IMG/VR virus record: IMGVR_UViG_3300033182_001206
Location: 6,408 to 70,407 of that record
Reading direction: 5' to 3' (one strand)
DNA: 64,000 nucleotides
From: a virus
The position numbers and the translations under genes were made by a program. Positions 3-47,523 of this stretch are shown one piece after another. How positions within the stretch are numbered: the first letter of the stretch is position 1; each line of letters starts with the position of its first letter. The notes under the pieces are model-generated. The model did not search any database. It saw nothing but the letters and a program-made list of their open reading frames with translations, and had not been told where the DNA came from.

Positions 3-803
3 CCAGGTGCCGGTGGAGACATGTTCAGCATGTTGGCTGGTAGTACCAGCAAAGGCACATTTGGTTTTGGCAAAAGCAGTGTAAACAAACGACAACAACG
101 GCTGGTAGCCAGTGGATTGAACCTGCCAGACAAGCGTATGATTTCTGGTATACAGTTTGCCGCTGAACACTTTACACGTATTCCTGTTATGCAGAACTAT
201 ATACAGACTATGCTGATCAGTGCTGTGGGTTTGAGCATGTATGCCAATAGAGATCATCTTCAAACAAAAACGAAGTTCTGGGACGCATTGGCAAATTCAC
301 ACACCATATGGGCAGCAGGACACCCCGGCGGAAACATGCTGGAGCATCACAATCGCAGTTGGGTATCAGCATGGCGACAGGGTGTTGAGTCAATTGGTTG
401 GAGTTATTTGCCTGTGCATGTGGTGTGCAACAGCTATGACAGTTTTCTATGGACCTGTTGTATTGCGCACAGTGCAAGGTTAGCGGATCAAACACATGAA
501 ACAGTTGAACCATTTATTGCCAAACAAGCACACTGGATAGACACTGCCAGAAGAACTGTAGAAGCAGATACACTGCAAATTGATTTTGTACAGCTGGTAT
601 TGGACAATAAACCAGACGAACTGCTGGCATGGATAAAACAAAATATAAATCAAGACATCAATGAATCAGTGTATTATGAAATATTTGAAAACTACAGAGA
701 CATGCGCTATCAACATTTTTTGGACTGGAAAGAAAAGTTTGCAGACCGTCTTGACTTTTGGAAAGAAAACTATTATAATAAAATTTCAAACCCGAAAGGA
801 TAA
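3..803 (+). CDS. Sulfotransferase-like/P-loop protein, 5'-truncated by the window edge
   Basis: Frame is open from nt 3 (PGAGGDMFSML), resembling a PAPS/P-loop segment; the ORF-track Met at 21 is probably internal. Confidence 0.45.
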   Translation, partial: PGAGGDMFSMLAGSTSKGTFGFGKSSVNKRQQRLVASGLNLPDKRMISGIQFAAEHFTRIPVMQNYIQTMLISAVGLSMYANRDHLQTKTKFWDALANSHTIWAAGHPGGNMLEHHNRSWVSAWRQGVESIGWSYLPVHVVCNSYDSFLWTCCIAHSARLADQTHETVEPFIAKQAHWIDTARRTVEADTLQIDFVQLVLDNKPDELLAWIKQNINQDINESVYYEIFENYRDMRYQHFLDWKEKFADRLDFWKENYYNKISNPKG

Positions 804-809
804 TTACAC

Positions 810-1967
810 ATGGGCGACTTGAAATGGAGCGAGTATGACTTTACTAAAACGCCGTATGAAGATATTGTACGTGTGGGTCAGCGCACTATGCTTTATCGCG
901 ATATGTTTACAGTTAGTTGGCTACTTGGTAGATTCTGCAACTACAGATGCAGTTACTGCTGGCCCTATGCAAGAAGCGACCGTAAAGACCATCGTCCTAC
1001 CGAGCTCTGCTTGCATACAGTGGATGATATCAAACGTCAAGCCCGAGAGCGAGGTTTCAATTCTTTTCACTTCTCCTTGTCAGGAGGAGAACCTACATTC
1101 CATCCTGGATACTTGGACATCTTGGCTCACTTGGCAGCAGATGTAAACAACACAAACTATACCAGTGTGCACATGACCAGCAACATGAGTCGACCAATGA
1201 AATGGTTTGAAACCTATGTTGATCACAGTGCAAAGTTTCATAGAGCAAGTATCACAGCAAGTTTGCACACAGAACACCTAAATACACAAGAGAAGATGCA
1301 AGGGTTTGCAGACAAACTGATCTTCTGTCAGGAGCATGATGTACAAGTTACAATCAATATGGTCATGGTTCCGGAATGGTTTGACAGAGACTGGGAAAAC
1401 GCACTGTTCTTCCATGAACAGGGAATTAATGTTACTCTCAAGCCCCAAAGCGATCCAACGGCCTCCCGTGTTGTGGATGGGTATACTGACGAAATGCTGG
1501 CACGTATGCGCAACGGAATGCCGCAACGAGGATTCACAGAAATCAAAAACAAATACGTGACTAGACCCAAGCCTACATTCCACAAAGTACCGGATCCTAT
1601 TTACAGCAACTTTGATGCAGACGATGTGCCGCAGCACTTTCAAGTTGAATTCAAAGACAGCAAGCACAAAGAATATTACATGGATCAAGCAGAACGCTTC
1701 AATGCATTCAACTTCAATCAATTTGAAGGCTGGGAGTGCAGCAGCGGAATGCGCAGCATCATTATACGTGAACCAGACGGCAGTGTCAAGCGCAGTTACA
1801 GTTGTAATGATGAACCGTTGGGCAATATCGAAACAGGGTTTGAACTGTTCAAAAAGCCCACAGTGTGCACAACCAAAAGCTGTGTAAGCAGCGCAGACAG
1901 CAAAATACCAAAGCGCCGTGCAGGCACAAAACTTCCGCTATTTCCCGGAGATGAATCATACAAATGA
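810..1967 (+). CDS. Radical SAM protein with C-terminal twitch/SPASM-like region
   Basis: CNYRCSYC (CxxxCxxC), SGGEPT, C-terminal WECSSG..DGSVKRSYSC..LGNI..CTTKSC. Confidence 0.92.
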   Translation: MGDLKWSEYDFTKTPYEDIVRVGQRTMLYRDMFTVSWLLGRFCNYRCSYCWPYARSDRKDHRPTELCLHTVDDIKRQARERGFNSFHFSLSGGEPTFHPGYLDILAHLAADVNNTNYTSVHMTSNMSRPMKWFETYVDHSAKFHRASITASLHTEHLNTQEKMQGFADKLIFCQEHDVQVTINMVMVPEWFDRDWENALFFHEQGINVTLKPQSDPTASRVVDGYTDEMLARMRNGMPQRGFTEIKNKYVTRPKPTFHKVPDPIYSNFDADDVPQHFQVEFKDSKHKEYYMDQAERFNAFNFNQFEGWECSSGMRSIIIREPDGSVKRSYSCNDEPLGNIETGFELFKKPTVCTTKSCVSSADSKIPKRRAGTKLPLFPGDESYK

Positions 1968-2227
1968 GAAGATTTATTAGGAGTGCCCAGCGCAAGGAAA
2001 TCAGCGGCACAGTTTATTATCACGAAAAAGAATGGGACATTGAAGAACAGTTTGCATGGTGGCCCGTATTACTGACCAATGGAAGCTGGTGTGTTTGGAA
2101 AAAATATTACATTGTAACAATTGATAGAAATGTAGATGCTAGACACAGATGGATAGATGTGCAAAAACTTTCGTATGATGAATATTTTTGGAAAGTGATG
2201 AGCGGTGAAATTCCTCAATCTAAATGA
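1964..2227 (+). CDS. Hypothetical protein (87 aa)
   Basis: ATGA start/stop coupling with upstream gene; fills the gap; FAWWPV..W.W motif. Confidence 0.7.
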   Translation: MRRFIRSAQRKEISGTVYYHEKEWDIEEQFAWWPVLLTNGSWCVWKKYYIVTIDRNVDARHRWIDVQKLSYDEYFWKVMSGEIPQSK

Positions 2228-3542
2228 CGATTTTGACCTATTGCTGGCAGACAGTGTAGAACTGTGGCACTGGGGCAAAGCCAACATGGATTGGCACGAA
2301 GTGTTTGAATCCTGTCGTGAAGGTGTGTTTCCACAAGACATCAGAGGACGTTTTGCATTTTACTATCGTGATCAACACAATGTGTTCATGTGTGTAAATC
2401 ATGTAGCAGAAAAACCACTGTACTACACAGAGGATCGTTGTTTTGCATATCTCAACCGCTGGGTGTTGGATACAGAATTAGAAAAAAATGATGCTGTACA
2501 TGAAGCACAACTGGGACTGTTGGGATTCTGTTACACCATTGGCGAGCACACTCCGTACGAACAAATACGCAGAGTAAAACCCGAACACTACTATCACAAT
2601 GGTGTGCAATATCGTTACAGTGATGTGAGCAGACCACGTGGCTATATTTGGGACGACGAGCTGTATAGACATTTGTTGAACAGCAGTCTTGAGCGTGAAC
2701 TTGCAACACAGATGCAGGCCAGCATGCTGTTCAGCAGTGGCAGAGACAGTGCAGTGATTGCCAGTGCACTTGCCCAAACACGATTGAATAGAAAAGTAGA
2801 TTTCTACACAATATATCATGAATCAGGCACACACAATGAAGTAGACGATGCTATGTCAAATGCATATCAGCTGGACATTGCACCAGTTGAACTACGTGCA
2901 AATATAACCAGACCGTTGGATGCAGGATATGAATTCAACGACAGTGCATGGCATGTGAAGTATCAAACACTCAGCAGATACAACATCGACGGCTTGATCA
3001 TCACTGGAGAAGTAGGAAACTGCATGAGCTATGGTGAAACTGGCAAACGTCTAAACTATTTCACCAACTGCTATGGAAAGATCAAACCAGAAGAAATTGC
3101 CAGCATGATCTGTTCTCATGTGGAAAACTTCAAACAAACCTGTACAAACACCAGCACATTTTCAGATCAGTTTCTACGTGACTCAGTGCATGCACCTATA
3201 GCTTGGCAAATGATTGTGGACGATGTAGCTGATGATTTGAACAGATGGGGATTTCATTACAGCAAAGATCTTGATTACAAACGCAACTGTATCATCAATG
3301 CAGGCAGTTTGCATCACAAGGTATTTAGACTGAGAGGATATTCACAGGACACTGGTAGACAGTATTTTCATCCGTTGGCAGACTACTATGTAATGGAATA
3401 CACATTGGGACTCAACTGGTTTGAACGTGAACAGCATGACACTGCCAAATGGTATTATCAACGTGCATATCAACAGAGCGGACCTTTTGCTATTGCTGCA
3501 TGGAACAACAATGTCAGAGGATTGGGTATAAAATGTCAATAA
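2205..3542 (+). CDS. Asparagine synthetase (AsnB)-like ATP pyrophosphatase/amide ligase lacking the N-terminal Cys
   Basis: RGRFAFYYRD..EKPLYY, PP-loop FSSGRDSAVIA, TGEVGN, HPLAD. Confidence 0.75.
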   Translation: MKFLNLNDDFDLLLADSVELWHWGKANMDWHEVFESCREGVFPQDIRGRFAFYYRDQHNVFMCVNHVAEKPLYYTEDRCFAYLNRWVLDTELEKNDAVHEAQLGLLGFCYTIGEHTPYEQIRRVKPEHYYHNGVQYRYSDVSRPRGYIWDDELYRHLLNSSLERELATQMQASMLFSSGRDSAVIASALAQTRLNRKVDFYTIYHESGTHNEVDDAMSNAYQLDIAPVELRANITRPLDAGYEFNDSAWHVKYQTLSRYNIDGLIITGEVGNCMSYGETGKRLNYFTNCYGKIKPEEIASMICSHVENFKQTCTNTSTFSDQFLRDSVHAPIAWQMIVDDVADDLNRWGFHYSKDLDYKRNCIINAGSLHHKVFRLRGYSQDTGRQYFHPLADYYVMEYTLGLNWFEREQHDTAKWYYQRAYQQSGPFAIAAWNNNVRGLGIKCQ

Positions 3543-4003
3543 GATGGACTGTGCCCAGTAAGAATTTTGTACTGCTGGGATCGCACACACAAGCACAAAC
3601 GTTTTTGGAAACAGTGTATCCGTATTATCCGGACTGTCTTGTACTCACTGCGGATAAAACCTATCCAGTGTTGGAAGATGCATACAACGATGCTTGGCAA
3701 CTGTGGCTCAATGATAGAAAGTTGCGCATTGCAGTGTTTGGTAAAAACCATTTTGATACTTGTCCTGCACCAGCCACAGATCATATCTGTGTTATGGACA
3801 TGCTGATGAGTCATGCAGAAGTAGGACGCTACACAGATTACAACAAACAGAGTAGAATAAAATTTGAACCTGCACATGTGGCCATGCTGTTGGATCATTT
3901 CTTTTCACAGCGCGGTAACAAACCAGGTTACAGTGCAGGCGGTGGACAACAGCGTCAACGATACAAAAAGAGCAAGCGGTCATGGACAAAAAATTTATTG
4001 TAG
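3533..4003 (+). CDS. Hypothetical protein
   Basis: ORF 3449-4003; ATG 3533 (MSIRWTV) preferred because it overlaps the upstream stop. Confidence 0.6.
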   Translation: MSIRWTVPSKNFVLLGSHTQAQTFLETVYPYYPDCLVLTADKTYPVLEDAYNDAWQLWLNDRKLRIAVFGKNHFDTCPAPATDHICVMDMLMSHAEVGRYTDYNKQSRIKFEPAHVAMLLDHFFSQRGNKPGYSAGGGQQRQRYKKSKRSWTKNLL

Positions 4004-4623
4004 AAAACTATCAACCCATGCTTGAACATTTCAAGAGACTGGTTGATCCAGATATGAAACACGGTCCGGAAAAATACATTGAGTACTACGGACAATACTA
4101 TTGGGAAAAACTGTTGCTGATTGAATGTGCAGATCTCAAACCTCACAGCGAATGCTTGGATATCAGCACTGGTGTTGGACTGTTGCCATTGATGTTGCGC
4201 AGTCAAGGACACAGTTGCGATGCTACAGAAGCTGCGGGCGAGTATAACATTGACAGCAAAGACAACACTGAAGCATATGCACTGTACAGAAAAATGAACG
4301 GTGTGAACACTACAGAATTCAGCATACTGCGCAACGGCACTTGGCGTGGAGAATTGCCCAATAAAAAATACGATGTGATATTCAGCAGTAGAATTGTATG
4401 GGACAGAGGATTTGGCATTGAACAGTATCATCGTTTGTTTGATTATCTTTTTGAACACACAGATCGATTGGTGTTGAATTTCAATCATTATTGGCATCCA
4501 GATACAACACCCAAAAAACCTCATCTACAATGGTTGTACAAGCATGCCGCTGATATACAAAACGTAACTGGAATGAATTGTGTGTTCGATAAATACACAT
4601 ATCAAAAAGAGGAAAGCCAATGA
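3982..4623 (+). CDS. Class I SAM-dependent methyltransferase
   Basis: Motif I CLDISTGVGLL; KYDVIFS post-motif. Confidence 0.8.
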   Translation: MDKKFIVENYQPMLEHFKRLVDPDMKHGPEKYIEYYGQYYWEKLLLIECADLKPHSECLDISTGVGLLPLMLRSQGHSCDATEAAGEYNIDSKDNTEAYALYRKMNGVNTTEFSILRNGTWRGELPNKKYDVIFSSRIVWDRGFGIEQYHRLFDYLFEHTDRLVLNFNHYWHPDTTPKKPHLQWLYKHAADIQNVTGMNCVFDKYTYQKEESQ

Positions 4624-4928
4624 GTGTAACATATTACAGAAAATTCTTAGGAGTTGGACCATATGCAACAAGAGAAGCATACCTTGCTGATCTAGATCCA
4701 GACAACAACTGGCTAAACTTTGCCAATGCACAGGTTACGGCTGGAAATATCACTAGTTATGATTACAAACTTGCTGTGGCACAAAATGCAATATATGGCG
4801 CATGTACTTGTCCAAGTGATGCTGCATGGGATGCAATGTTGATTGCTGAAGCAAGTGCAGGATTCAATTTCAAGAACCAGTTCAACGCTATCACAGTAAC
4901 CGAAGCAGAATACACAGCAGGCGCATGA
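4620..4928 (+). CDS. Hypothetical Ala/Asn/Thr-rich small protein (102 aa)
   Basis: ATGA coupling on both sides; GAGGA SD upstream. Confidence 0.7.
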   Translation: MSVTYYRKFLGVGPYATREAYLADLDPDNNWLNFANAQVTAGNITSYDYKLAVAQNAIYGACTCPSDAAWDAMLIAEASAGFNFKNQFNAITVTEAEYTAGA

Positions 4929-5683
4929 CCTACGGATCAAAAATTAGAACACTGTTGTTGACAAACTTTGTGCTTGCTGCATACACTGTGTACTACTGTG
5001 TTTCTTATGAACAGTATTGGATCTTGTGGACAGGGATTGCGTGGGCAGTTTTCAGCATAGGTGTAGGCACGTTTGGCGGATGGCACAGATACTGGAGTCA
5101 TCGCAGCTATGAAACAGGACCTATACGTGAAAACATCATGACATGGTTGGGCATGCTGAGTCTAACTGGTGCTCCTATTACTGTGGTTGCAATGCACAGA
5201 TACCATCATGCCAACAGCGACCAAGCAGTAGATCCGCACAGTCCGCAAAATGTGCCTTGGTACAAACTGATACTGGGCTACTATCAAACTTTTGAAACTT
5301 CACCAAGAATTGTGCGTGATGTGATACGCAACAAACAAATGAAGTTTGTGCAAAAGAACTTTTTCAAGCTGTATACCGGCGGGTTGATTGTTGCTGCACT
5401 GTTACATCCTGTGCTTGCAGGTGTGTTGTTTTCATTTCCATGCGTGTACTGCTACATTGCAGGCATAGGTGGCAATGCTATAATGAATCATATATTTGGC
5501 TGGCAAGATCATGACAGCAAAGACAACAGTAAAAACAATGTGCTGTTGGCCATATTGAGTTTAGGCGAAGGTTGGCACAACAATCATCACTATCGTGCCA
5601 GCAGATACACCACCAGTGAAGCATGGTGGCAAATAGATCCAGTGGGTTTATGGATAAAATACTGTTGGGCTACTAAGGTTTAG
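4925..5683 (+). CDS. Membrane fatty-acid (delta-9-like) desaturase
   Basis: Three His boxes HRYWSH, HRYHH, HNNHH; hydrophobic segments; GEGWHNNHH..WWQID. Confidence 0.93.
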   Translation: MTYGSKIRTLLLTNFVLAAYTVYYCVSYEQYWILWTGIAWAVFSIGVGTFGGWHRYWSHRSYETGPIRENIMTWLGMLSLTGAPITVVAMHRYHHANSDQAVDPHSPQNVPWYKLILGYYQTFETSPRIVRDVIRNKQMKFVQKNFFKLYTGGLIVAALLHPVLAGVLFSFPCVYCYIAGIGGNAIMNHIFGWQDHDSKDNSKNNVLLAILSLGEGWHNNHHYRASRYTTSEAWWQIDPVGLWIKYCWATKV

Positions 5684-6638
5684 TAGGACACATCTGTTCA
5701 ATTTCATACTTGCTGGGACTTTTGTGTGGATAATCATAATTTTTTTCATCCCAATATTGACCCAAGTAGTGTTGACTGTTTTCAATCCACTGGTTCATAC
5801 GCTGTGCAATATTGTAATGGCTTTTGATACCCGGACGTCTACAGTCTCTGGCTAGGTCAACTACCCAAGTAAATGGTTCTTGCAAGTATGTGATATTTTT
5901 ACGAGGACGCAATCTTCGTATCCAAAGATGTCTCCACATGCGACTGGGCTCCCATGCAAACAACACAGGCACTCCTAAACTGTCCAGTGCATCTAAAAAC
6001 GTTTCCGTATACTGTCTATTGTTTTCCATGTACATTGCAGCCATAGCACGGCGCCAATATTCTGCATCATTTCTGTGTCTGTTTTGTTCAAACAAATGCA
6101 GATACATGTAGTCTGCTTCAGTGAAAAAACGTGGATTGCTGATAATAATGTGTGTGGGATTGTATTCAGTTGCCCAGTGTTTGATAGGTTCCCACATGTT
6201 TACAAGACTGTGATACGGCGATAGGTTTATGTGCTTGCCGTGTGTCAAACTGGTATGACACAGTTCATATGGTATGCCCATTCCAAATGTACTACACTGT
6301 CCTGCATGCAATACACGTGTGTCTGCACGAACATCACTGGGTCTATGATTGCTGCGAAATCCGTTGCGATCCAATAGATAATGCACTTCTTCTCTAGTCC
6401 ACACACGGTCTTGTACAACATGGTCCAGTTTGTAATCCATGCCCATGCAGCCTATCCAGCCCTGTTCTTCATGCTGCTGAAAATAATATTCGTTGTCGCC
6501 GCCATACCATCGACTGTCCCACATGGGTTCCAGTGGCTGCTCTGGATAATAATCTTCAAAGTCTAGGTCAGTGTGGTTAGCACTCTGCTCAAATAGTTCT
6601 TTTTCTAAAAAGTATTGTTGATAATCTTTTCTATCCAT
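5673..6638 (-). CDS. SGNH/GDSL-hydrolase-like protein, probably lacking the catalytic His
   Basis: NGFRS..GQCSTFGMG..INL..DLARDCRRPG (family position DxxHPG has Arg). Confidence 0.55.
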   Translation of the reverse strand: MDRKDYQQYFLEKELFEQSANHTDLDFEDYYPEQPLEPMWDSRWYGGDNEYYFQQHEEQGWIGCMGMDYKLDHVVQDRVWTREEVHYLLDRNGFRSNHRPSDVRADTRVLHAGQCSTFGMGIPYELCHTSLTHGKHINLSPYHSLVNMWEPIKHWATEYNPTHIIISNPRFFTEADYMYLHLFEQNRHRNDAEYWRRAMAAMYMENNRQYTETFLDALDSLGVPVLFAWEPSRMWRHLWIRRLRPRKNITYLQEPFTWVVDLARDCRRPGIKSHYNIAQRMNQWIENSQHYLGQYWDEKNYDYPHKSPSKYEIEQMCPTKP

Positions 6639-7174
6639 TATAGTTCCGCTACGGCATAACAGTTTGCATCGCTGGTATCAGTGCCAAAAAATTCACTACG
6701 CTGTTCAAATCCTGCTGCGGTATATGCACGTAAACTTTCTTTACGTGGCATGGTCCACACTGTGTTGCAGTTTTCCAATCTTGCTTTTATCAACAAACGG
6801 CGCAGCAGCATTTGTGCAATACCGTTGCCTCTATATTCTTGTTTTACATACAGTCCTCTGCTGCGATATACGTTTTCTGCTGTACGATGTCCACTGTTAC
6901 AACCAATCAATTCCAAGTTGTCAGTGTCTCGTTCTTTTATATACACAGCCCAAAATGTAGGCTCATACTTTTCATATATGGTCATATCAATGTTTTTAGC
7001 ATCTGTCATACTGCTCATTGGACGAATATCCTGTCTACCCGGCCATAGATATCTACTCCACATGTCGTGTACAGCTTCAAAGCTGGTTTCTATGATTTCT
7101 AATTGACCGCAATCACGACAGAATTCGCTGCCATATTCCATACAGTCGTTGCATCTAGGATCATGTGTTAGCAC
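6638..7174 (-). CDS. GNAT acetyltransferase with N-terminal CxxC-x7-CxxC
   Basis: RSRGLYVKQEYRGNGIAQMLL (motif A), YTAAGF; GTG 7174 with GGAG SD preferred (ORF track 7192). Confidence 0.85.
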   Translation of the reverse strand: MLTHDPRCNDCMEYGSEFCRDCGQLEIIETSFEAVHDMWSRYLWPGRQDIRPMSSMTDAKNIDMTIYEKYEPTFWAVYIKERDTDNLELIGCNSGHRTAENVYRSRGLYVKQEYRGNGIAQMLLRRLLIKARLENCNTVWTMPRKESLRAYTAAGFEQRSEFFGTDTSDANCYAVAEL

Positions 7175-11064: not shown

Positions 11065-11065
11065 A

Positions 11066-11422
11066 TTATTCCTTGCTAACGCTTTGTAAATGCATCCAAC
11101 CTGTGTCTTCGTGACATGCTCCTTTGCAAACCGGCGAACAGGTTTCTTCGTAGTCCCAACTTTGTGCATTCCAGTGTGTCATAAAAGCATCATGCTTGAG
11201 TATTTTTTCCCATCCGTGCTCACGCACATCGTTCCAATCTTTGGGCAGATTGTCAATGTAGGAATCGCCTGTTTTGCCAAACTCAGCAAAAAGATTTTGA
11301 TAATAACAACAGGGCCATATGCGAAAATTTACATCGCAGTCTATTTCTGCACTGTCCATTGCAGCACAGCGTACACGCCCTTGCAGTTTAGTCAACTTCG
11401 ATGTCGAGCAGTCTTCCGACAT
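11066..11422 (-). CDS. Stand-alone SPASM/twitch Fe-S domain protein
   Basis: RCAAM..IWPCCYY..WNDVREHGWEKIL..CSPVCKGAC; own AAGG SD. Confidence 0.7.
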   Translation of the reverse strand: MSEDCSTSKLTKLQGRVRCAAMDSAEIDCDVNFRIWPCCYYQNLFAEFGKTGDSYIDNLPKDWNDVREHGWEKILKHDAFMTHWNAQSWDYEETCSPVCKGACHEDTGWMHLQSVSKE

Positions 11423-15915: not shown

Positions 15916-15936
15916 AGGGATCCTCTAATTATATAG

Positions 15937-25378: not shown

Positions 25379-25379
25379 A

Positions 25380-31154: not shown

Positions 31155-31169
31155 GCGGTAAATATTGGT

Positions 31170-31892: not shown

Positions 31893-31895
31893 AAT

Positions 31896-39534: not shown

Positions 39535-40840
39535 AGTTGGTCCAAATGTATTCTAGTTCTGGGAACGCAGAGGGTGTATCTTCGTTTCTCAACTGATCAA
39601 TCAGTTTAGTTTGATTGACCATGTCACGCAACACACTTTCATCCAGCTGCTCGCTGTTCATAAATCCAATAGTGTTGTTGATAGTATCAATCACTGGATT
39701 GAGATGATAATCAGGAAATGCATCAGATAACCATTGAATATGATCACGCAATACCTGTTCGGCATCCTGTTTCATATGCGGCGGCAATGCTTTCAAATTA
39801 TAAAAGCTGGGATTTTCCAATATGTTGAAAAACATGTCGTTTGGTTTTAGCCATTCACGTTTGATCCATTTTTTATGTAGATCGCAAATGGTAAACACAC
39901 TCATGATTTGCAGCGTAGGAGCAATCCCAAATCGCACATGAGGTGCTTCTTCTTTGACACGCTTTACATGTTTTTCTATAGTGGGCCACACTGTGTCTTT
40001 GCGTATATTTTCAGCTCTAGCACCTTCAGCATCTATACTTGCTGCACAGTATACATTTTTGAATTTGCTCCAAGTTTTGATCACATCCATGTCTTTGTAG
40101 TGCATTTGCATGAAGTTCGTACTGTAACGCAGATAAACATCGTACAATTCAAGTTCATCCAAACGTTTGAGAATACGATAGTGTTCTTCCATGATCATTG
40201 GTTCGCCGCCAGCAAAATAAAGTTCTTGCACATAGGGCAAATACTCATCCAATCGATCCAACAGTGCTGTACTGTCTTCTACTCCGTGAACAATAGCTTG
40301 GTTACGCTGTGTTTTGTATCTATATTCTTCGTGCTGTTCTGCCAGTTCTTTTGCATCGTTGAACCAACGACTGCTGCTGAAATGTCCACACATTTTACAG
40401 CGCATGTTGCAAATATTACTAAAACGTATATCCCAATATATGGGCTTGCTGTCTGTGCTGGTGCCATCTTCTTCTGTGTTCAGTACCCATTGTTTACTGG
40501 GTTGATGATATTTGCGCACACTGTCTGTGCGCAGGCTCCATGTGCCGCTGCTTTCTTTGCTGTAACATGCTTGGCAATGTGGAACTTTTTTATCCTCCCT
40601 CATGCGCAATCTCAGTTTGCGCATTTCTTCACCGTTCCAAATTTCATCAAAAGTTTGATTGTTGATGTTGCCCAGTGGACGGTTCCAATCTCCTACACAG
40701 CAAGGCAATACATCACCAATGGCACTAACATGCAGGTGACTCCACAGCAGAGGACAATATGCATCAGTTTCGTCAACCACCTGCTGCCAATCTGCACCGC
40801 TTTCAATCAGTGCATTTACTTTGCTATAATCTGCTGGCAT
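39527..40840 (-). CDS. Radical SAM protein with N-terminal twitch domain
   Basis: CPLLW..GDVLPCC..CQAC; RFSNICNMRCKMC; FAGGEP. Confidence 0.92.
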   Translation of the reverse strand: MPADYSKVNALIESGADWQQVVDETDAYCPLLWSHLHVSAIGDVLPCCVGDWNRPLGNINNQTFDEIWNGEEMRKLRLRMREDKKVPHCQACYSKESSGTWSLRTDSVRKYHQPSKQWVLNTEEDGTSTDSKPIYWDIRFSNICNMRCKMCGHFSSSRWFNDAKELAEQHEEYRYKTQRNQAIVHGVEDSTALLDRLDEYLPYVQELYFAGGEPMIMEEHYRILKRLDELELYDVYLRYSTNFMQMHYKDMDVIKTWSKFKNVYCAASIDAEGARAENIRKDTVWPTIEKHVKRVKEEAPHVRFGIAPTLQIMSVFTICDLHKKWIKREWLKPNDMFFNILENPSFYNLKALPPHMKQDAEQVLRDHIQWLSDAFPDYHLNPVIDTINNTIGFMNSEQLDESVLRDMVNQTKLIDQLRNEDTPSAFPELEYIWTNYA

Positions 40841-42338
40841 CTTCTAAACCTTTTCTAAACATGTCTTCGTACTCTGGAAATACACTGCAAAAATCAGTGC
40901 CTCTGCGCCGATCTAATATATCAATGTACCTTGCAAAATTAGCACGATGCATGACACTTTCTTCTTCAAATCGATCATATTCATAGCCTGCGTAGAATGC
41001 GTTGTCCACAACACGGCCCATTTTTTCAGCTTCAAAGTCATAGAAATTTCTGTTGTCTTCACCAACAGTCAAATTACTCATCATGAATTCATATTGATCC
41101 CACACACGTGGCATGGTCCATGCTTTGTCTGGTGTGCCCACACTCATAAACGGAGGAAAGTGCAACGGACTAATATCAATGTGTAGACTGCAAGGTTTTT
41201 CTCCTCTTACAAACCAATCGCCTTGACCAGTGGATTTCATAAACTCTACATATTGATTGTAACGTCCAATCATCGATCCATTGTAACGATTGTATCGCTG
41301 CTTTACTTCCAACACACGCTGTAAAAATGTTTTGAAACTGGGTATACTCATCAAACTGTAAGTAACCATGATCGTGTTGTCAACCTGAGGATGGTTTTCA
41401 ATAAGATACATCAGTCTATCCCACAGCAGATTGAAGTCCAATCCACTGCGAATGTATTCTGCTTGCTCGCCCCAGCCGTCAATACTGGTATACAATGTGA
41501 TCTTTTTTACACAATTTTGATCTTCGTTGCGTTTGATAAAGTCCAGCAGTTTTTGCCAAGCTGCTTCTGGTGCATTCAAGTTTGTGTTCAGTGCAAAGTC
41601 CAGCTCGGGTCGAGGATCTTGTTCCAAATCCTGCATCAATCTAAATGTATCTCGACTCATAAGAGGCTCGCCGCCTGTGATACGCAAATACTTGATGCTG
41701 TTTTTCAATTCAGGCCACCATTTCCAAAATGCTTCAACATATGGATTGTATTCACGTTGGGGAATAGGTAACTGATCAATACTTTTGTACCATTCTAAAT
41801 CATGATAGTTCCAGCTTCGTGTTCGCTTTTTGACATCAAACAGTGTTATACGTTCATGTGCTTCTTGTTCTTGCTGCCATTTGCTGCTGAAATGCGGGCC
41901 GCAGTATGAACATTTTAGATTACACGCATTTGAAAAGCTCACTTCAACATAATTAGGAGCATGACTTTCTCCTAGTCCGCTGCTGCGAATTGTGTCAAAT
42001 CTATCTGCAAATAAATTTGCACTTTTTAGATATCTGTCACTGATAGCATTTTCATTGTTGTCTTCCATTTTGTAACAATAGTTACAAGGCTCTGGTCTTT
42101 CGCCACGTATCATTGCAGCACGTTGATTCAGCTTCTCTTCACTGTTGTGAATTGCCATATAATTGGACTCAACTTCTTCAACGCTGATTTTATGCGGTGC
42201 AGGGTGGTGACAACTGTGCGTCATTCCGTTGTGCAAGTGCATGGTGACTTGATCCCATTTGGCCAAGCAGTAACCAGAACCAACGTCATTTAGACGCTGC
42301 TTCATATCCAGTGCACGTTGTAGTTCATTTTCATTCAT
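40824..42338 (-). CDS. Radical SAM protein with N-terminal Cys/His domain
   Basis: CLAKW..HSCHHP..CNYC; SNACNLKCSYC; TGGEPL. Confidence 0.92.
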   Translation of the reverse strand: MNENELQRALDMKQRLNDVGSGYCLAKWDQVTMHLHNGMTHSCHHPAPHKISVEEVESNYMAIHNSEEKLNQRAAMIRGERPEPCNYCYKMEDNNENAISDRYLKSANLFADRFDTIRSSGLGESHAPNYVEVSFSNACNLKCSYCGPHFSSKWQQEQEAHERITLFDVKKRTRSWNYHDLEWYKSIDQLPIPQREYNPYVEAFWKWWPELKNSIKYLRITGGEPLMSRDTFRLMQDLEQDPRPELDFALNTNLNAPEAAWQKLLDFIKRNEDQNCVKKITLYTSIDGWGEQAEYIRSGLDFNLLWDRLMYLIENHPQVDNTIMVTYSLMSIPSFKTFLQRVLEVKQRYNRYNGSMIGRYNQYVEFMKSTGQGDWFVRGEKPCSLHIDISPLHFPPFMSVGTPDKAWTMPRVWDQYEFMMSNLTVGEDNRNFYDFEAEKMGRVVDNAFYAGYEYDRFEEESVMHRANFARYIDILDRRRGTDFCSVFPEYEDMFRKGLEDASRL

Positions 42339-43539
42339 TGAATGCTCGCTTTGCGTTGTTTACAAGAGCAGTTAGGTTACCCAGGCCAACTCGAGGATGC
42401 TGGAATATAGGATTGGTTAGTTCACGTAAAAATTCTCTGTGTTCAGGATGCGAATCTTTCCATATACAATGCTGTTCGTATTCTTCTGGCTTCCAAGTTC
42501 CCCAGTCAGTGACAAGACTGAAACACACCTGTTCTGCATTGGGGAAACGTTCCAAACACATTTCAGCATACTGAACCATTTCTTTGTAGTTATCACGCTG
42601 CACAACAAAATCATAATAGATACGGAAGTTGGGGTACTGCTCACGCTTTTTGTCCAAGAAATCGCAGTTGCTCAACAACAATTCCCAGTTGCCATTCAAT
42701 CGTGTTTTGCCTTCGTATGTTTCTTTTGTACCTGCATCCAAGCTGATACGACAACTGCCCAAGTTGTTGTGTATTTTGCTGATGCTGTCCCACATCTTAG
42801 GAGTGAACATCACCCCATTGGTTTGCATGTTTACAGTGAGATTAGGGAAATCTTTGCCGTTGATTTTCCACAGCATTTCTCTATAAATTTTGCTGGCAAA
42901 CGGATCGCCGCTGCCGGTTACAAAAATACTGAAACTTCTGTCAGTGGGTTCACTGAACAGCATATCAAAAATTTTGTCATTGATTTGTTTGCGTCTGTCG
43001 TACATGGGTCCTTCGGTAAACAGTATTTTGTCTACTCTGCAGCTAGGACATTTTAGATTACAGCTTTCATCGTTGCTGAAGTTGATATTGGTAGGAAGTT
43101 CAGCACTGACAGTGCTGCCTGTTTCCAATGCTTGAATTTCATGCGGCCAGAATTTTTTGGGATTGTTCTTTACCCATTCAATATCAGGAAGATTATTGCT
43201 GGCTATTTCAGGACAGAAGCTGTGTTGACAGTATCCCCATTCTCCACTGAATACTTGATCTCTCAGTTTTTGAGCACGTTCACCGTTCCACATTTCTTCC
43301 AATGTGTCTTCCATAACATTGCCAATGCTGTAGGGCAACCAACTTGGACAACACATCCATGCTCTACCATGCATGTCAATTTCCAGCCATGTGTACAATT
43401 TGTTGCAGTATTTTCCTGCAAGATCTTTTCTGCCAGTGGTCATACCAACAGTGTCTTTGATCCAGACTCTACCAAAGAGAGGATCATTGTAATGGCCGTC
43501 TGCTTCTATGCTAAATGGACGTTGACTTTCGGAACTCAC
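42331..43539 (-). CDS. Radical SAM protein with N-terminal twitch domain
   Basis: CNKLY..CCPSW..CQHSFCP; DESCNLKCPSC; TGSGDPFAS; TNG. Confidence 0.92.
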   Translation of the reverse strand: MSSESQRPFSIEADGHYNDPLFGRVWIKDTVGMTTGRKDLAGKYCNKLYTWLEIDMHGRAWMCCPSWLPYSIGNVMEDTLEEMWNGERAQKLRDQVFSGEWGYCQHSFCPEIASNNLPDIEWVKNNPKKFWPHEIQALETGSTVSAELPTNINFSNDESCNLKCPSCRVDKILFTEGPMYDRRKQINDKIFDMLFSEPTDRSFSIFVTGSGDPFASKIYREMLWKINGKDFPNLTVNMQTNGVMFTPKMWDSISKIHNNLGSCRISLDAGTKETYEGKTRLNGNWELLLSNCDFLDKKREQYPNFRIYYDFVVQRDNYKEMVQYAEMCLERFPNAEQVCFSLVTDWGTWKPEEYEQHCIWKDSHPEHREFLRELTNPIFQHPRVGLGNLTALVNNAKRAFNE

Positions 43540-44525
43540 TTATCATCTTCCAGTGTGTATTGTACGCTGTCCTCACGTATAAATGCACCCATTCTAGCAG
43601 GGTTTGTGTAAACTGCTTTGAAAAATCTACTGCCATCTTCGTCAAGGTCTGCAATTGGCAAGTCCAAGTGACGCTTGATTTCTACACCTAGCTCTCGACT
43701 ACGTGCACGTACAGCTTCTTTGTTCCAACGAACACCAGTGTTTGCACAGATTTCTCCATCTGGGTCTTCAAAGTCCGGAAACAGTTCTGTGTTGAAAAAG
43801 TTTGTGAGCCAATCAAAGTCGCGTACATTTTTCCAGTCCCATTCGGTTCTAGTGATGTTGGTCATGTATGTTCCCAGTCTGGCACCGTACATTGCCCAAA
43901 TACCATTTGGACTATCTTCTCCTACACTCATCCAGGTAAACAGTCTCTTCAAGTTTGTTTTGTGCACAGTTTTCAGTCGTTCCGGATCTACAACATCGCC
44001 ACCTTCCAGTGTCATTTTCACACCTTCGCGGAAACCAGCACGCCAGGCTTGCAATGGGCTACCATTGTTCATAACATCACAATAGATGTTGTTCATTTGC
44101 ACATAGTTGATGTTCCAACAAAAGTCAACCTGTGCTGCTGCATTGTTTGGGTCTGCTGCTTCATGTGTGCGCATCTGCTGCACAACATGCTTGGGCCACA
44201 TTTTGATACCACCGTTGCCGTACACCAAACCATTGATTGTGTTTTTGCCTGCCCAGCTAACAACGTCATTAGCACCTATTAGACTACTGTCAAACTCTAC
44301 ATTGAAAAAGTCTGGGCGAACCTTGTTGTCTGCATCAATGGTAATAAATCTATCCGATTCTGCCATTGCTGCTGCTGCCTTGTGTGCGGCATCACTGCCC
44401 CATACACCGTGACTGCGCATTGCCCAAGGACAAATTTCCAGCAGGTGCGCATAGTTTTCGTCTGCGTTGGGTTCGTCATAGCTAATGAATACTATGTCGA
44501 ATTCATTGATTGATGTCATGCTCAT
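43536..44525 (-). CDS. GT-A-fold glycosyltransferase-like protein (FISY family, copy 2)
   Basis: FISYDEPNADENY, TIDAD (DxD), YGNGGIKMWP, WRAGFREGVKM. Confidence 0.65.
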   Translation of the reverse strand: MSMTSINEFDIVFISYDEPNADENYAHLLEICPWAMRSHGVWGSDAAHKAAAAMAESDRFITIDADNKVRPDFFNVEFDSSLIGANDVVSWAGKNTINGLVYGNGGIKMWPKHVVQQMRTHEAADPNNAAAQVDFCWNINYVQMNNIYCDVMNNGSPLQAWRAGFREGVKMTLEGGDVVDPERLKTVHKTNLKRLFTWMSVGEDSPNGIWAMYGARLGTYMTNITRTEWDWKNVRDFDWLTNFFNTELFPDFEDPDGEICANTGVRWNKEAVRARSRELGVEIKRHLDLPIADLDEDGSRFFKAVYTNPARMGAFIREDSVQYTLEDDK

Positions 44526-45483
44526 GTGTTTCGCCTATTACTAAATTTGGATATTGGTGTACTATCTTGTACTTCTCTGGAAGATGCAGCGACCGATACT
44601 GCACTGTTTTACCAGACAAGTCTCTACTGTTGATATCCAGACTGCCAATAAATCTCTGATCTATGTTATCTTCTATTGTAGCATCTACAAAGAACAAATG
44701 CAACCTTTTATTTGGCAAAGTCTTGTAAAGATCCTTGCTGCCGCGTATGTAAAAAGTTCCATTGCTGCGCCTAGTTACCACAATGTGATTGATTTCTTCT
44801 AACTTACTTATGTTGATGCGTCTTTGATTTGTGTTGTATGCGGGTACATATTCGTCACCTATATCATAACCATAACTGTCAAACAGTCGCATGGTGTAGA
44901 TGTCAATGTCACTGATATCCACATAACGCTCAATGCTGTGTTTTAGTCGCACAGCCACAGTGTTTTCTCTAACCAATTCCAATGGATCAATGATGATTTG
45001 ATTGATTAGAAAGTCTGGATTGTTGCGCTTGGTAATGTACAAGTTCATCTTGCTGCCCTGTGGGTTGGTAAGATCATTCATCTTGATTCCCCACAACAGT
45101 TTCTGTTTTGTTTGATAGCTGACGTTTACAGTAACAATATTATCTTGCGGATACAGCTTTATGTTGATATCATTGCTAACACGATTTTTAGGAATTTTGT
45201 ACAATAGATTTTCAGGTGCACGTAATCCTGCTACATCTTTTTTGTGCATAAACGCAGGTTCGTTGGTTTCATCATCGTAGTGCACACACCACCAGGCGCT
45301 GTTTTCTTTGCCGCTGATAATTTTACTGCACACAGCGTTTTCTGTTATTACGTAAGGATTCGTAGTTTCTGGAACCAACTTCTTTGATATTTTTACAATG
45401 CGGCCGTCGGCATCATTGTAATAGACAAAAAACTTACGCTGCTTCTTTTCTTTGGGAATTTCTGTAACGGTCTCGAATTCCAT
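44503..45483 (-). CDS. Hypothetical protein with apparent internal domain duplication
   Basis: Coupled ORF; two similar segments (MNLYITKR..FLINQIIID / LHLFFVD..RFIGSLDIN). Confidence 0.65.
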   Translation of the reverse strand: MEFETVTEIPKEKKQRKFFVYYNDADGRIVKISKKLVPETTNPYVITENAVCSKIISGKENSAWWCVHYDDETNEPAFMHKKDVAGLRAPENLLYKIPKNRVSNDINIKLYPQDNIVTVNVSYQTKQKLLWGIKMNDLTNPQGSKMNLYITKRNNPDFLINQIIIDPLELVRENTVAVRLKHSIERYVDISDIDIYTMRLFDSYGYDIGDEYVPAYNTNQRRINISKLEEINHIVVTRRSNGTFYIRGSKDLYKTLPNKRLHLFFVDATIEDNIDQRFIGSLDINSRDLSGKTVQYRSLHLPEKYKIVHQYPNLVIGETHEHDINQ

Positions 45484-46285
45484 TGAATAGTTCCTCGTCT
45501 AAAAAATCATCATTGATATATGCAAATGACTGGCTTTGTAAAAAGTTGTCAATCTTTAGTTGTCCTGTATACCAAACATTCAATATATCAGTCCACAAGT
45601 TGTTTTTGAAGTTGTACATTTCTGTATAACTGAGAACTTCTAGGTTTGTGTGCAAATTATCTGTATAACTGTCCAACAGGCTGTTGGTAATGCTGTGCAG
45701 CAAATCCGTTTGCGGCCAGGTTGGTATATGTTCTGGCTTGAGTATGGTTTTGTACATTTCTCTCCAATGATGACAAACCACATCAAACATCTTGAAGTAT
45801 GCATGACTGTTGTCGCTGTTGTCAAAGTACCACATTCCGTCATTGAGATTTGCCAAATTGTTTTCGAACCATACTTTTCTATTGTCGGGCAAATAGGGCA
45901 TTGCTCTAAATGTTTTTACTTGCTGCGGAAAACACACACTGTATGTGCTTAGGGCAGCCCAGTGATATTGTAAATTTTCCAACAGTAGAACATCACTGCG
46001 CAGTACAATATTTTTTTCAAATGGTGTTGCATGAAACAGTTGCCAATCATTGAGATTCCAATGTACACTTTCTCCAGCAGTGTTGCCGTATGGAAATTCA
46101 ATGAGATAGTCTGCACATTCTTCATACTTGCTGGGGAAAGCTCTTATGTTTGTTACAAATATTGCAACACTGGTATCAGGGTTGGAGAGTTTGGCTTGCA
46201 TTGCACAAGCTGCTGCCCGACGATAACTGCTTTGATTGCCTCCGCCGTTGATTACAAATCCTTGTGGTTCTTGACTGTCAATCAT
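45434..46285 (-). CDS. Glycosyltransferase-like protein (GT8-like), paralog of 46289-47185
   Basis: NDWQLFHATPFEKNIVLRSD, DGMWYFD. Confidence 0.55.
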   Translation of the reverse strand: MIDSQEPQGFVINGGGNQSSYRRAAACAMQAKLSNPDTSVAIFVTNIRAFPSKYEECADYLIEFPYGNTAGESVHWNLNDWQLFHATPFEKNIVLRSDVLLLENLQYHWAALSTYSVCFPQQVKTFRAMPYLPDNRKVWFENNLANLNDGMWYFDNSDNSHAYFKMFDVVCHHWREMYKTILKPEHIPTWPQTDLLHSITNSLLDSYTDNLHTNLEVLSYTEMYNFKNNLWTDILNVWYTGQLKIDNFLQSQSFAYINDDFLDEELFNGIRDRYRNSQRKEAA

Positions 46286-46288
46286 TGT

Positions 46289-47185
46289 TTATTCCCATTG
46301 GTTCATCATGCGACCCAGTGCACGTTTGTTCATAATATGGATGTCTTGCTTTTCAATTTTCACCAGTATATTTTTCCATGGTTCGTCTCTGTCATGTGCT
46401 AAAAACACAAAATGGTCTGCACTGTTGCTTTCTACAATATCGTCTTTTTGATCCACATTCAGCATGCGATTACCAGGTAGGTTTGTAACAAAGTCTCCAA
46501 TTTGCATACCATCTAGTATATGACTGGCAATGCTTACACAAAAGTCTGTTCTAAACAGTTTGCTTTCGAACCCGTACAAGAACTTGTAGTAGTCATAGTT
46601 GTCTGCAATGTGTGCCCATGTATCAAAGAACATGCGGCTTTCATTGCTTTGATCAAAATAAATCACTGTGCTCCACATCATTGGAATACCATTTTCGTGT
46701 AGCCAGCGTTCTTTGAATCTTGGATATTCGTATCTTAGGTAACGTGCATCTTTGAACATCTGCACTGGATTGACATTGTCCTTATCAAACACTGTTTCCA
46801 ATGCATTGGTTTGCACAATGTAATCAATATCCATTAGTATAGTACGTTCAAAAGGTGTTAGCCAAAACACTTTGTGCTTGTTTCCGTTTTTGAAAGGTGC
46901 ACTGAATTCAGTCCACGGTGAATCATAGTGTGCTCTGTAGTTTTGATTTTCTGGTGTGTTAGTGGTAACAATGTAATCAAATATTTCATCAATTTCAGCC
47001 GCACTGTACACACTGCGGAGATAACCTTCGCCAGCTTCGTCTGTGATTAGACAAGTGTTGTTGTGTGTTGTAAAATGTTTCTTTACTTGTTCTGCTGCTA
47101 GTACACTGAAATTGATGTAGTCTAGTTGATCATTATTGTATGCAAAGAAACAAACACCTGTTCGGGCTAGTTTGTCCATTACCAA
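46289..47185 (-). CDS. Glycosyltransferase-like protein (GT8-like)
   Basis: GVCFFAYNN..DY, TPFERTILMDIDY (DxD), WSTVIYF, FRTDFCVSIA. Confidence 0.62.
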   Translation of the reverse strand: MVMDKLARTGVCFFAYNNDQLDYINFSVLAAEQVKKHFTTHNNTCLITDEAGEGYLRSVYSAAEIDEIFDYIVTTNTPENQNYRAHYDSPWTEFSAPFKNGNKHKVFWLTPFERTILMDIDYIVQTNALETVFDKDNVNPVQMFKDARYLRYEYPRFKERWLHENGIPMMWSTVIYFDQSNESRMFFDTWAHIADNYDYYKFLYGFESKLFRTDFCVSIASHILDGMQIGDFVTNLPGNRMLNVDQKDDIVESNSADHFVFLAHDRDEPWKNILVKIEKQDIHIMNKRALGRMMNQWE

Positions 47186-47523
47186 TCCATTAGTTTTTTG
47201 ATATTCCGTGCACGTTTGATTTTTTCGTTTTCAGCTTTGTATTCATTCATTGCTTGGTGATATGCACTTTTCAATTGATCCAACAGCTCTTGTGGATTTT
47301 CCAGTTCAACTGGATTGTTTTTATCATCTTCGACAATTAGACTTTTATCAAGTTCAATCATTGTGCTTAGAAATGCAATCATTGTAGGTGTTGCAGTGAA
47401 TGCACTTCCTTTGTAATGCACTGTTCTAATAGTGTTGATACGATTTCTAAGATTTGTTTTTTGATTAGCAAGTGTTACACGATAGTTGCTAAATTCTAAT
47501 GCTTTTTCTAAGCGTTCATCCAT
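47179..47523 (-). CDS. Hypothetical phage protein (114 aa)
   Basis: AGGAG SD; first gene after a consensus sigma70 promoter; MDERLEKALEFSNY..DD..NP. Confidence 0.8.
   Translation of the reverse strand: MDERLEKALEFSNYRVTLANQKTNLRNRINTIRTVHYKGSAFTATPTMIAFLSTMIELDKSLIVEDDKNNPVELENPQELLDQLKSAYHQAMNEYKAENEKIKRARNIKKLMDW

Follow-up and report, generated by a model that had tools for sequence, protein, structure and literature searches.

The locus and its carrier virus

The stretch of viral DNA considered here (the window; 64,000 nucleotides, bases 6408-70407 of a single 75,787-bp viral contig, IMG/VR record IMGVR_UViG_3300033182_001206) carries at positions 3-47523 an island of glycan-building and tailoring genes, which lies next to the baseplate and fibre genes of a large phage. 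The island has been found to be a mosaic of a conserved core and variable blocks, and part of this core forms a cassette that has kept its place behind the fibre genes in distant relatives. Genes are named in the following by their left window coordinate (e.g., 810 or 43536), and the Pfam family scan has covered the open reading frames (ORFs) of the window, with four ORFs to its left (contig 3988-7210) lying outside of it. The original prediction, derived from the letters of the same stretch, had described about 60 tightly packed genes, and 59 ORFs have been counted in 3-47523, separated by small gaps or overlapping. The predicted glycan-building and tailoring character has gained support at the family and fold level, and most of the enzyme classes listed at that time, i.e., radical S-adenosylmethionine (SAM) enzymes, methyl-, sulfo-, carbamoyl- and acetyltransferases, 2-oxoglutarate (2OG) oxygenases and enzymes of nucleoside diphosphate (NDP)-sugars, are borne out by Pfam or NCBIfam families, with ~8 methyltransferases in the island. 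The absence of replication and known DNA-modification domains from the window has likewise been confirmed in the family scans; for the whole contig, a 76-kb fragment of a ~350-kb genome, the lack of DNA-modification genes is uninformative. Two statements had to be revised. The island does not begin at base 3 but reaches the left end of the contig and is at least 54 kb long, as three N-terminal-twitch (N-twitch) radical SAM paralogues and four ORFs are located left of the window. Furthermore, its proteins are not mostly glycosyltransferase-like, since none of the ORFs matches a Pfam glycosyltransferase (GT) model and a GT-A-like profile or fold is seen in four of them only (46289, 45434, 43536 and 15211). 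About 25 of the 59 island ORFs remain without any Pfam or NCBIfam match, and all of the sugar enzymes score below the NCBIfam equivalog cut-offs, which precludes naming the sugars.

The structural genes are all encoded on the minus strand and comprise the C-terminal part of a gp6-like baseplate wedge protein (62513-64000; phrog_10646, E = 4e-107; 1184 residues on the contig), a giant virion structural/baseplate protein of 4014 residues (50469-62513; phrog_10938, E = 8e-182, and also phrog_2885, baseplate wedge) and three genes of the tail/fibre module (47585-50435), which code for a 197-residue phrog_11259 protein, a 360-residue fibre-like protein and a 390-residue protein without match, and are collinear in all relatives. 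The fibre-like protein has N- and C-terminal domains in common with gp176 of the Agrobacterium phage Atu_ph07, and the counterpart of the giant protein in the Ralstonia phage RsoM2USA, ORF361, has been detected in virions by mass spectrometry (PMC8504454). A T4-like cyanophage had been expected at first, and this identity was dropped as the best structural matches in tblastn are jumbo phages and cyanophage records yielded no match by megablast or tblastn. The wedge protein is 37-47% identical to those of Atu_ph07, Salicola phage SCTP-2, Pseudomonas phage PA5oct and Rak2-like as well as Erwinia/Yersinia jumbo phages, and the gp6-like wedge, the giant (>2500 residues) baseplate protein and the phrog_11259 protein follow each other in this order. 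Judged by these genes, the carrier is an uncultured marine jumbo myophage of the Atu_ph07/RsoM2USA/Rak2-like baseplate group. At the DNA level, 12 kb compared by megablast with 50,697 phage records have given no match. IMG/VR relatives of 45-96 kb have a CheckV completeness of 9-27%, which corresponds to a genome size of ~350 kb, and the same region is present in a 319-kb contig (behind L052). For the giant baseplate protein of this 319-kb relative (L052:1-6753), precomputed Pfam annotation lists YHYH (PF14240) and, as a faint match, CBM_5_12, so that it may contain carbohydrate-binding modules. The GC content is even across the window (0.39-0.45) and tRNA genes are absent from it. An assembly chimera has been ruled out, because the junction between tail genes and cassette is repeated in many independent assemblies and the GC content is uniform.

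A conserved cassette behind the fibre genes

The cassette that follows the fibre genes is transcribed from the minus strand and is headed by a small gene for a protein of 114 residues (47179-47523), for which no PDB, Pfam or PHROG match has been found and whose orthologues in 14 loci, including gp354 of RsoM2USA, are 27-96% identical. The next gene, 46289 (46289-47185), encodes a GT8-like protein of the GT-A type with an invariant D119-I-D121 motif, followed by its remote paralogue 45434 (45434-46285), which is related to the 46289 family with an hhalign probability of 91% and collinear in relatives. The PDB profile searches with small alignments gave nothing significant, and only a merged profile of 20 sequences from the 46289 and 45434 families was successful, matching glycogenin (GT8) over the nucleotide-binding half with E = 3.8e-6. 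The atlas lead for 46289 (GT8/Mannosyl_trans3) points in the same direction; Pfam PF01501 is not matched by 46289, and none of its 416 metagenomic homologues carries a Pfam annotation. According to the profile match to glycogenin and the conserved DxD motif, 46289 is assigned as a GT8-type (retaining GT-A) glycosyltransferase. In 45434 the DxD motif is degenerate, reading R-S-D here and E-A-D in orthologues, and its catalytic competence is uncertain. A fast-evolving cassette protein of 326 residues (44503-45483; 315 cluster representatives) shows neither invariant catalytic-looking residues nor a PDB match by profile.

The most conserved gene of the island is 43536 (43536-44525), with 70-98% identity in relatives, which encodes a GT2-like protein of the GT-A fold (the 'FISY(D/R)E' family) with an invariant D64-A-D66 motif. 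Neither 43536 nor its paralogue 15211 (15211-15915, minus strand), which is 31% identical and has the D-A-D motif in common with it, matches PF00535 or a related Pfam family at E<=0.01. In the AlphaFold2 (AF2) model of 43536, residues 1-120 are predicted with a local confidence (pLDDT) of 73-91, while the C-terminal half is poorly predicted, which keeps the template modelling (TM) score of the fold matches at ~0.3. All significant fold matches of this model are GT-A proteins, namely RmlT, ppGalNAc-T, SunS, B4GALNT1 and AlphaFold DB clusters named GT2, where the GT2 name of the neighbours comes from automatic atlas cluster names only. On the basis of the modelled fold and the DxD motif, 43536 is classified as a divergent GT2-type GT-A glycosyltransferase family. 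Directly adjoining 15211 on the minus strand, 14255 (14255-15214) encodes a class I SAM-methyltransferase-fold protein, whose AF2 model (pLDDT 73, with residues 130-319 at 80-96) matches BioC, Rv2258c and NodS; among its 667 PDB matches at E<=1e-3, the best 50 are nearly all SAM enzymes. The family keeps a glycine-rich GGW(Y/I)G and an acidic (S)xD(I/V)D motif, and in view of additional model matches to nicotianamine synthase/CntL, an aminoalkyl transfer by 14255 is conceivable. The tail-proximal strand block is closed by a protein of 423 residues (38263-39534, minus strand); its description as GT-B-like has been rejected, as it has no Pfam or NCBIfam match and only 7 homologues.

The original prediction had proposed a synteny survey, and in this survey the core cassette has turned out to be linked to the fibre genes in relatives, while the bulk of the island is not. 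The proximal cassette, consisting of the 114-residue gene, the two GT8-like genes, the 44503-type gene, the GT2-like gene and the N-twitch radical SAM genes, is found behind the fibre genes in at least 15 independent contigs (L003-L009, L021-L023, L025, L033, L036, L052/L053) and in RsoM2USA; this collinearity applies to all phage-type loci recovered, distant relatives of 27-50% identity included. The 197-residue tail protein has led to nine IMG/VR loci. In seven of them, where this protein is 51-96% identical, the alignment extends across the fibre genes, and 47179, 46289, 45434, 44503 and 43536 come next without a change of order or strand, in most cases with radical SAM genes behind them; the two most distant loci (44%) offer little sequence further downstream, and no cassette homologue appeared there. 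When species-representative genomes were scanned with the 43536 family, 31 loci emerged in two contexts, a phage-type and a bacterial one. The phage-type set, made up of a contig of 108 kb binned as Gammaproteobacteria MED685, of MED657, of a 140-kb Bdellovibrionales-binned contig and of metagenome-assembled genomes (MAGs) of Polynucleobacter and Haliscomenobacter, shows the order fibre-like, 114-residue protein, GT8-like, its paralogue, GT2-like and N-twitch radical SAM at 24-50% identity, with the 114-residue gene not detected in the Haliscomenobacter contig. Locus L027 also has the cassette, on a contig that begins inside of it.

The cultured relative RsoM2USA

RsoM2USA (MG752970, L020), a Ralstonia jumbo phage, is the only one of the 50,697 cultured phage records with cassette genes. 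Its gp354 corresponds to 47179, gp353 to 46289, gp352 to 45434, gp350 to 43536 (43% identical), gp349 to an N-twitch radical SAM enzyme of the 40824 type (35%), gp348 to 15211 (39%) and gp347 to 14255 (28%). The run from gp354 to gp347 keeps the order and the single strand of its counterparts in the window and likewise follows the baseplate/fibre module, but the RsoM2USA cassette measures only ~6.5 kb compared to at least 54 kb here and has no variable nucleotide-sugar block inside. The 15211/14255 pair forms one uninterrupted run with 43536 in RsoM2USA but lies 28 kb apart from it in the window. The island of the window reads as an expanded eight-gene cassette. A gene resembling epimerases/dehydratases of the short-chain dehydrogenase/reductase (SDR) type, gp358 (record 225112-226089), has been observed among the RsoM2USA tail genes. 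In the study of this phage all cassette genes are listed as hypothetical, only abundant virion bands were identified, and no assay for glycans or DNA modification was included (PMC8504454).

Radical SAM enzymes

The contig contains eight radical SAM genes, six of which are N-twitch paralogues, three in the window and three left of it. Those in the window (39527, 40824 and 42331, together 39527-43539, minus strand) follow the GT2-like gene and have been assigned by NCBIfam NF033640 (N_Twi_rSAM, cut-off 170 bits) and by their architecture, with an N-terminal cysteine cluster followed by CxxxCxxC. The NF033640 scores amount to 367 bits for 39527 and 284 bits for 40824; 42331 scores 59 bits, below the cut-off, and has been included as a BLAST paralogue of the same architecture. 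A literature search on NF033640 found no paper. A further radical SAM enzyme identified by Pfam, 810 (810-1967, plus strand), has 4795 homologues (E<=1e-10) at ~80% identity over hundreds of 90% clusters and no homologue in the 50,697 cultured phage records; copies of 60-64% identity are present in Bdellovibrionales contigs. The 810-type enzyme is unusually conserved and abundant in marine data, and a further locus has been seen at L056:10001-11164. A radical SAM/SPASM gene (11388/11066; 11066-12080, minus strand) is split into ORFs of 230 and 118 residues with a 35-nt overlap and a change of frame. The same type is elsewhere a single gene of ~360 residues; as the 72% relative G003 is split too, with a 4-nt overlap, the split is conserved and not a sequencing error.

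Comparable sets are known from T4-like marine phages; Nishimura et al. (2017, PMC5332604) noted such a genome, TARA_ERS488813_N000010, in which radical SAM genes number 12. A Tara scaffold of 208 kb, T4-like in its features, resembles the window in clustering an 810 homologue (80%), two N-twitch paralogues and an 11388/11066-type enzyme. In Atu_ph07 (L055, NC_042013.1 116908-123646), an operon just 3' of the fibre genes includes the three radical SAM genes gp165, gp168 and gp171; it is equivalent in position to the cassette of the window, with only the radical SAM cores matching the window enzymes. The neighbouring gp166, gp169 and gp170 have been considered as glycosyltransferases and rejected because of hhalign probabilities below 2%.

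Variable and distal blocks

Regarding the remainder of the island, conservation differs strongly from block to block. From 810 to 18740 the gene order agrees with that of the 72% relative G003, where the distal part (3-14258) shows 38-82% identity. A counterpart of the nucleotide-sugar block (20419-39534, 19 kb) exists in the 96% relative G001 only; the contigs of the 72-74% relatives G002 and G003 extend over the region but largely lack the block. Between these blocks lies an O-carbamoyltransferase of the NodU/CmcH type (18740-20266, minus strand; Carbam_trans_N and Carbam_trans_C, E 1e-37 to 1e-51), which is retained with 56-66% identity in G002, G003 and G005.

Distributed over both strands, the variable block (20419-38285) contains by Pfam and NCBIfam families two nucleotidyltransferases (20828, and 24575 with a heptose-adenylyltransferase-like domain and a cupin), a HAD phosphatase (23093), two SDR epimerase/dehydratases (28110 and 31896), a sugar C-methyltransferase (26917), a TylF-type O-methyltransferase (33219), two PhyH 2OG dioxygenases (22344 and 31170, 31170-31892), an AhpC/TSA protein (32722), a cupin (35711) and a sulfotransferase-like protein (36695). 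Two proteins are conspicuously short, a plus-strand NDP-sugar dehydrogenase of 261 residues (34031-34816), in which the usual C-terminal domain is absent, and a plus-strand DegT-like protein of 202 residues (36090-36698), which matches only positions 31-100 and 185-260 of a profile of ~360. Both are 98% identical in the close relative G001 and would be either minimised or decayed enzymes. A family of three paralogues (29950-31104, 34813-35757 and 37302-38285) inside this block has no Pfam match, and its atlas scores (<=0.81) are uninformative. Counterparts of a noviose-type pathway are present at the family level only, in different strand blocks and with none at an equivalog cut-off, and the carbamoyltransferase is the only one of them kept in relatives.

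The distal tailoring block (3-14258, both strands) has been annotated by Pfam/NCBIfam and paralogy and contains, apart from the radical SAM enzymes, an AsnB-like amidotransferase (2205), a fatty-acid-desaturase-like membrane protein (4925, FA_desaturase), a GNAT acetyltransferase (6638), four paralogous methyltransferases (7161, 7805, 10213 and 12606) and the paralogues 8752 and 9482 of the sulfotransferase-like protein 36695.

Transcription signals at the junction

As described in the original prediction, the island lies 61 nt behind the last tail gene on the same strand, and no terminator-like hairpin is present in the gap. The further view that it is fused to the baseplate operon has been weakened, as the gap contains a conserved consensus sigma-70 promoter and the island consists of ten alternating strand blocks, of which only 38263-47523 is co-directional with the tail genes. 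The gap promoter is a perfect TTGACA-17-TATAAT (47579-47551, minus strand) and ends 28 nt before the ATG of 47179. In L003-L007 and L052 the site is retained at 12 of 12 positions, with conserved hexamers and a spacer that varies, and at 11 of 12 in the same place in L021, L023 and L027, whose 114-residue proteins are only 35-51% identical. It is missing in L008, and RsoM2USA has a hairpin in place of the sigma-70 consensus. Across the window, three perfect sites have been found versus 0.12 expected, and eight with at least 11/12 positions versus 2.8 expected; three sites end 26-31 nt 5' of start codons, namely those of 810, the carbamoyltransferase gene, which has its own promoter (20320-20292, minus strand, 11/12), and 47179. 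The conserved sigma-70-type promoters imply transcription by the host RNA polymerase and an island of several units; a single late operon continuous with the baseplate genes is at variance with the gap promoter and the mixed strands. The gap promoter suggests a separate and possibly early expression of the cassette. Because the gap has no terminator, read-through from the tail genes into the cassette is possible. The T4-late promoter motif TATAAATA has been tried and discarded, with 2 sites versus 2.1 expected, and owing to this lack of enrichment the timing of the structural genes is not readable from the sequence.

The second perfect TTGACA-17-TATAAT is located at 1761-1789 (minus strand), antisense inside the radical SAM gene 810-1967 and with no minus-strand gene downstream on the contig. 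The third (31672-31700, plus strand) lies inside the 3' end of the PhyH gene 31170-31892, 196 nt before 31896.

Bacterial relatives of the core enzymes

In the bacterial context, members of the core families lie in clusters that resemble those for glycans. On a 2.9-Mb Bacteriovoracaceae chromosome (OZ242254), genes similar to 15211, 43536 and 14255 stand in a row, surrounded by four ordinary GT2 genes, a PMT_2 (GT-C) membrane glycosyltransferase and a flavoenzyme similar to UDP-galactopyranose mutase (UGM), with cytochrome oxidase genes adjoining. An 804-kb Bdellovibrionales contig (CAXRHT010000003) combines GT2-like and methyltransferase-fold genes with six radical SAM genes of the N-twitch, 810-like (64%) and C-terminal SPASM types, and a SIS (GmhA-like) gene is nearby. 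These Bdellovibrionota envelope-glycan clusters are like the window in containing the GT2-like 'FISY' pair, a 14255-like gene and N-twitch together with 810-like radical SAM enzymes, but differ in being chromosomal with housekeeping genes alongside and in being devoid of the 114-residue gene, the GT8-like pair and the fibre genes. In Photorhabdus asymbiotica (L042, NZ_RBLJ01000001.1, locus 8777-16297), a 15211-like gene is part of a run on one strand with the order GT4, 15211-like, GT2, GT2, nucleotidyltransferase, ABC exporter and HlyD, which may represent a cluster for a secreted glycoconjugate. Taken at the level of gene neighbourhoods, these homologues show the core enzymes serving presumable cell-envelope or secreted glycans in bacteria, and the contexts support a glycan chemistry of the core.

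Proposed function and acceptor

The making of a glycan, its chemistry and its acceptor are what we infer from the families, folds and gene orders described above. Our preferred reading, held tentatively, is a system that assembles and tailors a glycan on a phage-encoded acceptor, probably tail proteins. Nucleotide sugars would be made and modified in the cytoplasm, with the variable blocks supplying unusual ones, and the four GT-A enzymes, two GT8-like of the retaining and two GT2-like of the inverting type, would build a short glycan. The conserved core would also contribute an N-twitch radical SAM enzyme, the SAM-methyltransferase-fold protein, the carbamoyltransferase and the 114-residue protein. 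Radical SAM chemistry on sugars has a precedent in BtrN-type twitch enzymes, and the radical SAM enzymes may perform C-H chemistry such as epimerisation, oxidation or C-methylation. Methyl-, carbamoyl-, sulfo-, acetyl- and amidotransferases together with dioxygenases, which would introduce hydroxyl groups, could then complete the decoration. Upstream tail-fibre or baseplate proteins would be the best candidates for the acceptor. The lines of argument for a phage-encoded acceptor come mainly from synteny. The carrier contigs have been binned with Gammaproteobacteria, Polynucleobacter, Haliscomenobacter and others, or the phage was isolated on Ralstonia, and since the same cassette is kept in phages linked to such different hosts, whose envelope acceptors should differ, the acceptor is likely phage-encoded and a host-specific one becomes less likely. 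Fibre and baseplate proteins are favoured because their adjacency is deeply conserved and because RsoM2USA encodes a sugar enzyme amid its tail genes, and the variability of the nucleotide-sugar block between close relatives is as expected for an exposed glycan. That the product is a glycan at all is supported by the family members lying among bona fide glycosyltransferases in Photorhabdus and Bacteriovoracaceae.

Several observations weigh against this reading. Gene order is generally conserved in the structural regions of phages, so that adjacency alone is weak evidence, and the conserved sigma-70 promoter separates the cassette from the tail genes. The 43536 model is of low confidence overall (mean pLDDT 59). 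Atu_ph07 has the fibre homologue but no glycosyltransferase cassette, and the radical SAM set of the T4-like Tara scaffold differs from that of the window in its neighbours, which are DNA ligase and small genes of early type, and in having neither glycosyltransferase nor tail genes close by. Ser/Thr-rich acceptor tails have been looked for in the tail proteins of the window and none was seen, in contrast to the mycobacteriophage systems discussed below. Soluble glycosyltransferases of the O-antigen type could, moreover, work on lipid-linked intermediates of the host, and the bacterial homologues in envelope-glycan clusters fit host-surface chemistry equally well.

In such a remodelling of the host envelope, the sugars of the island would enter the lipopolysaccharide (LPS), capsule or exopolysaccharide pathway of the infected cell, where soluble phage glycosyltransferases would use the undecaprenyl-linked intermediates of the host, with export of the product left to host flippases; the changed surface could, for instance, exclude superinfecting phages or alter the recognition by grazers, as has been proposed for the LPS-like islands of large cyanomyoviruses. 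The presence of the GT2-like pair, methyltransferase-fold and radical SAM homologues among GT2, PMT_2, UGM-like and SIS (heptose) genes in Bacteriovoracaceae and Bdellovibrionales argues for it, as do the heptose-type nucleotidyltransferase domain in 24575, the sigma-70 promoters, which fit an early host-directed expression, and the precedent of 22 cell-wall genes in S-SCSM2R, S-SCSM1 and P-SSM2 (PMC12801897). However, the hydropathy scan and Pfam have revealed no priming phosphoglycosyltransferase, flippase, ABC exporter, polymerase or ligase in the island, in which the desaturase-like 4925 is the single multi-pass protein. Together with the retention of one four-GT cassette across very different hosts and its conserved position behind the fibre genes, this makes the envelope a somewhat less likely destination of the glycan than the tail proteins.

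A phage-encoded acceptor could also be the DNA itself, which would equally explain the conservation across hosts: glycosyltransferases and tailoring enzymes would decorate hydroxymethylated pyrimidines and shield the phage DNA from host nucleases. Virus glycosyltransferases that hypermodify DNA with diverse glycans have been documented (Pyle et al., 2024, as cited in PMC12619734), and early-type promoters fit as well. In RsoM2USA, a second, divergent ThyA-family gene (ORF10, record 7739-8398, 85 bits) is located beside a dCMP deaminase and could be a pyrimidine hydroxymethylase. On the contigs examined, no hydroxymethylase, kinase or nucleotide-pool gene has been found in or beside the island, and the bacterial homologues belong to envelope-glycan and not to DNA-modification clusters. 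Sulfation, carbamoylation and C-methylation of DNA-linked sugars are, to our knowledge, without precedent, and we consider DNA hypermodification improbable. Even less is to be expected from a diffusible product, either a free sugar-derived small molecule (aminoglycoside-like, nucleoside-like or noviose-bearing) or a radical-SAM-matured peptide acting on the host or on competitors. Such a product would agree with the family-level route to a C-methylated, O-methylated and O-carbamoylated deoxysugar (26917, 33219, 18740, the two SDRs and the cupin), with the many twitch/SPASM radical SAM paralogues and with the ABC exporter and HlyD adjoining the Photorhabdus homologue, but the island contains no polyketide synthase, nonribosomal peptide synthetase, cyclitol synthase, precursor peptide, RRE domain or exporter, its sugar enzymes stay below the equivalog cut-offs and its nucleotide-sugar block is dispensable in relatives, which leaves a diffusible product highly improbable.

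Returning to glycosylation of a phage-encoded acceptor, a wider picture may be drawn, which is speculative and more to be doubted than expected. A widespread clade of aquatic jumbo phages and the phage RsoM2USA from soil would decorate their own fibres or baseplate with a radical-SAM-tailored oligosaccharide, and its outer chemistry (methyl, carbamoyl, sulfo, amino, C-branched) would be swapped among close relatives via the hypervariable nucleotide-sugar block, resembling an O-antigen-like serotype system on the virion. If true, virion glycosylation would thereby be described for the first time in phages that infect Gram-negative hosts, and the N-twitch radical SAM family would gain a function.

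Relation to known systems

Large sugar-gene islands in marine phages are already known. Those of P-SSM2, S-SCSM1 and S-SCSM2R contain nucleotide-sugar epimerases, dehydratases, glycosyltransferases and tailoring enzymes and vary between relatives (PMC12801897), and the island of the window is alike in being a large cluster of sugar enzymes in a lytic marine phage genome that varies between relatives. Unlike these cyanomyovirus islands, it is carried by a jumbo myophage with an Atu_ph07/RsoM2USA-type baseplate and not by a T4-like phage, it extends over at least 54 kb, its contig counts eight radical SAM genes, its glycosyltransferases are few and all divergent, and its conserved core cassette is fixed behind the fibre genes. 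Virion glycosylation is known from the mycobacteriophages Che8, Corndog and Myrna (Freeman et al., 2023, as summarised in PMC12619734), with phage-encoded soluble glycosyltransferases and methyltransferases that modify structural proteins of the phage, a likeness to the window system that we only propose. These phages infect Actinobacteria, and their systems consist of a handful of genes and are not known to include radical SAM enzymes, sulfo- or carbamoyltransferases. Their glycans on the C-termini of capsid and tail-tube proteins are reported to have been shown by mass spectrometry, whereas for the window such glycans are a prediction. What is distinct here is the carrier lineage, the size, the richness in radical SAM enzymes, the divergent glycosyltransferases and the fibre-anchored core with one cultured representative.

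The role of LPS-like sugar islands in big marine phages has been a long-standing question since the first cyanophage genomes. If the acceptor is the virion, phage particles could bear variable glycan coats, which would be relevant to host recognition, the avoidance of decoys and the fate of particles at sea. The chemistry proposed here would tie a very abundant marine radical SAM set to sugars, with a core that is common to envelope-glycan clusters of predatory Bdellovibrionota. The position of this core is the same in metagenomic jumbo phages of marine and freshwater origin and in a lytic Ralstonia phage available in culture, which makes the question accessible at the bench with an existing isolate.

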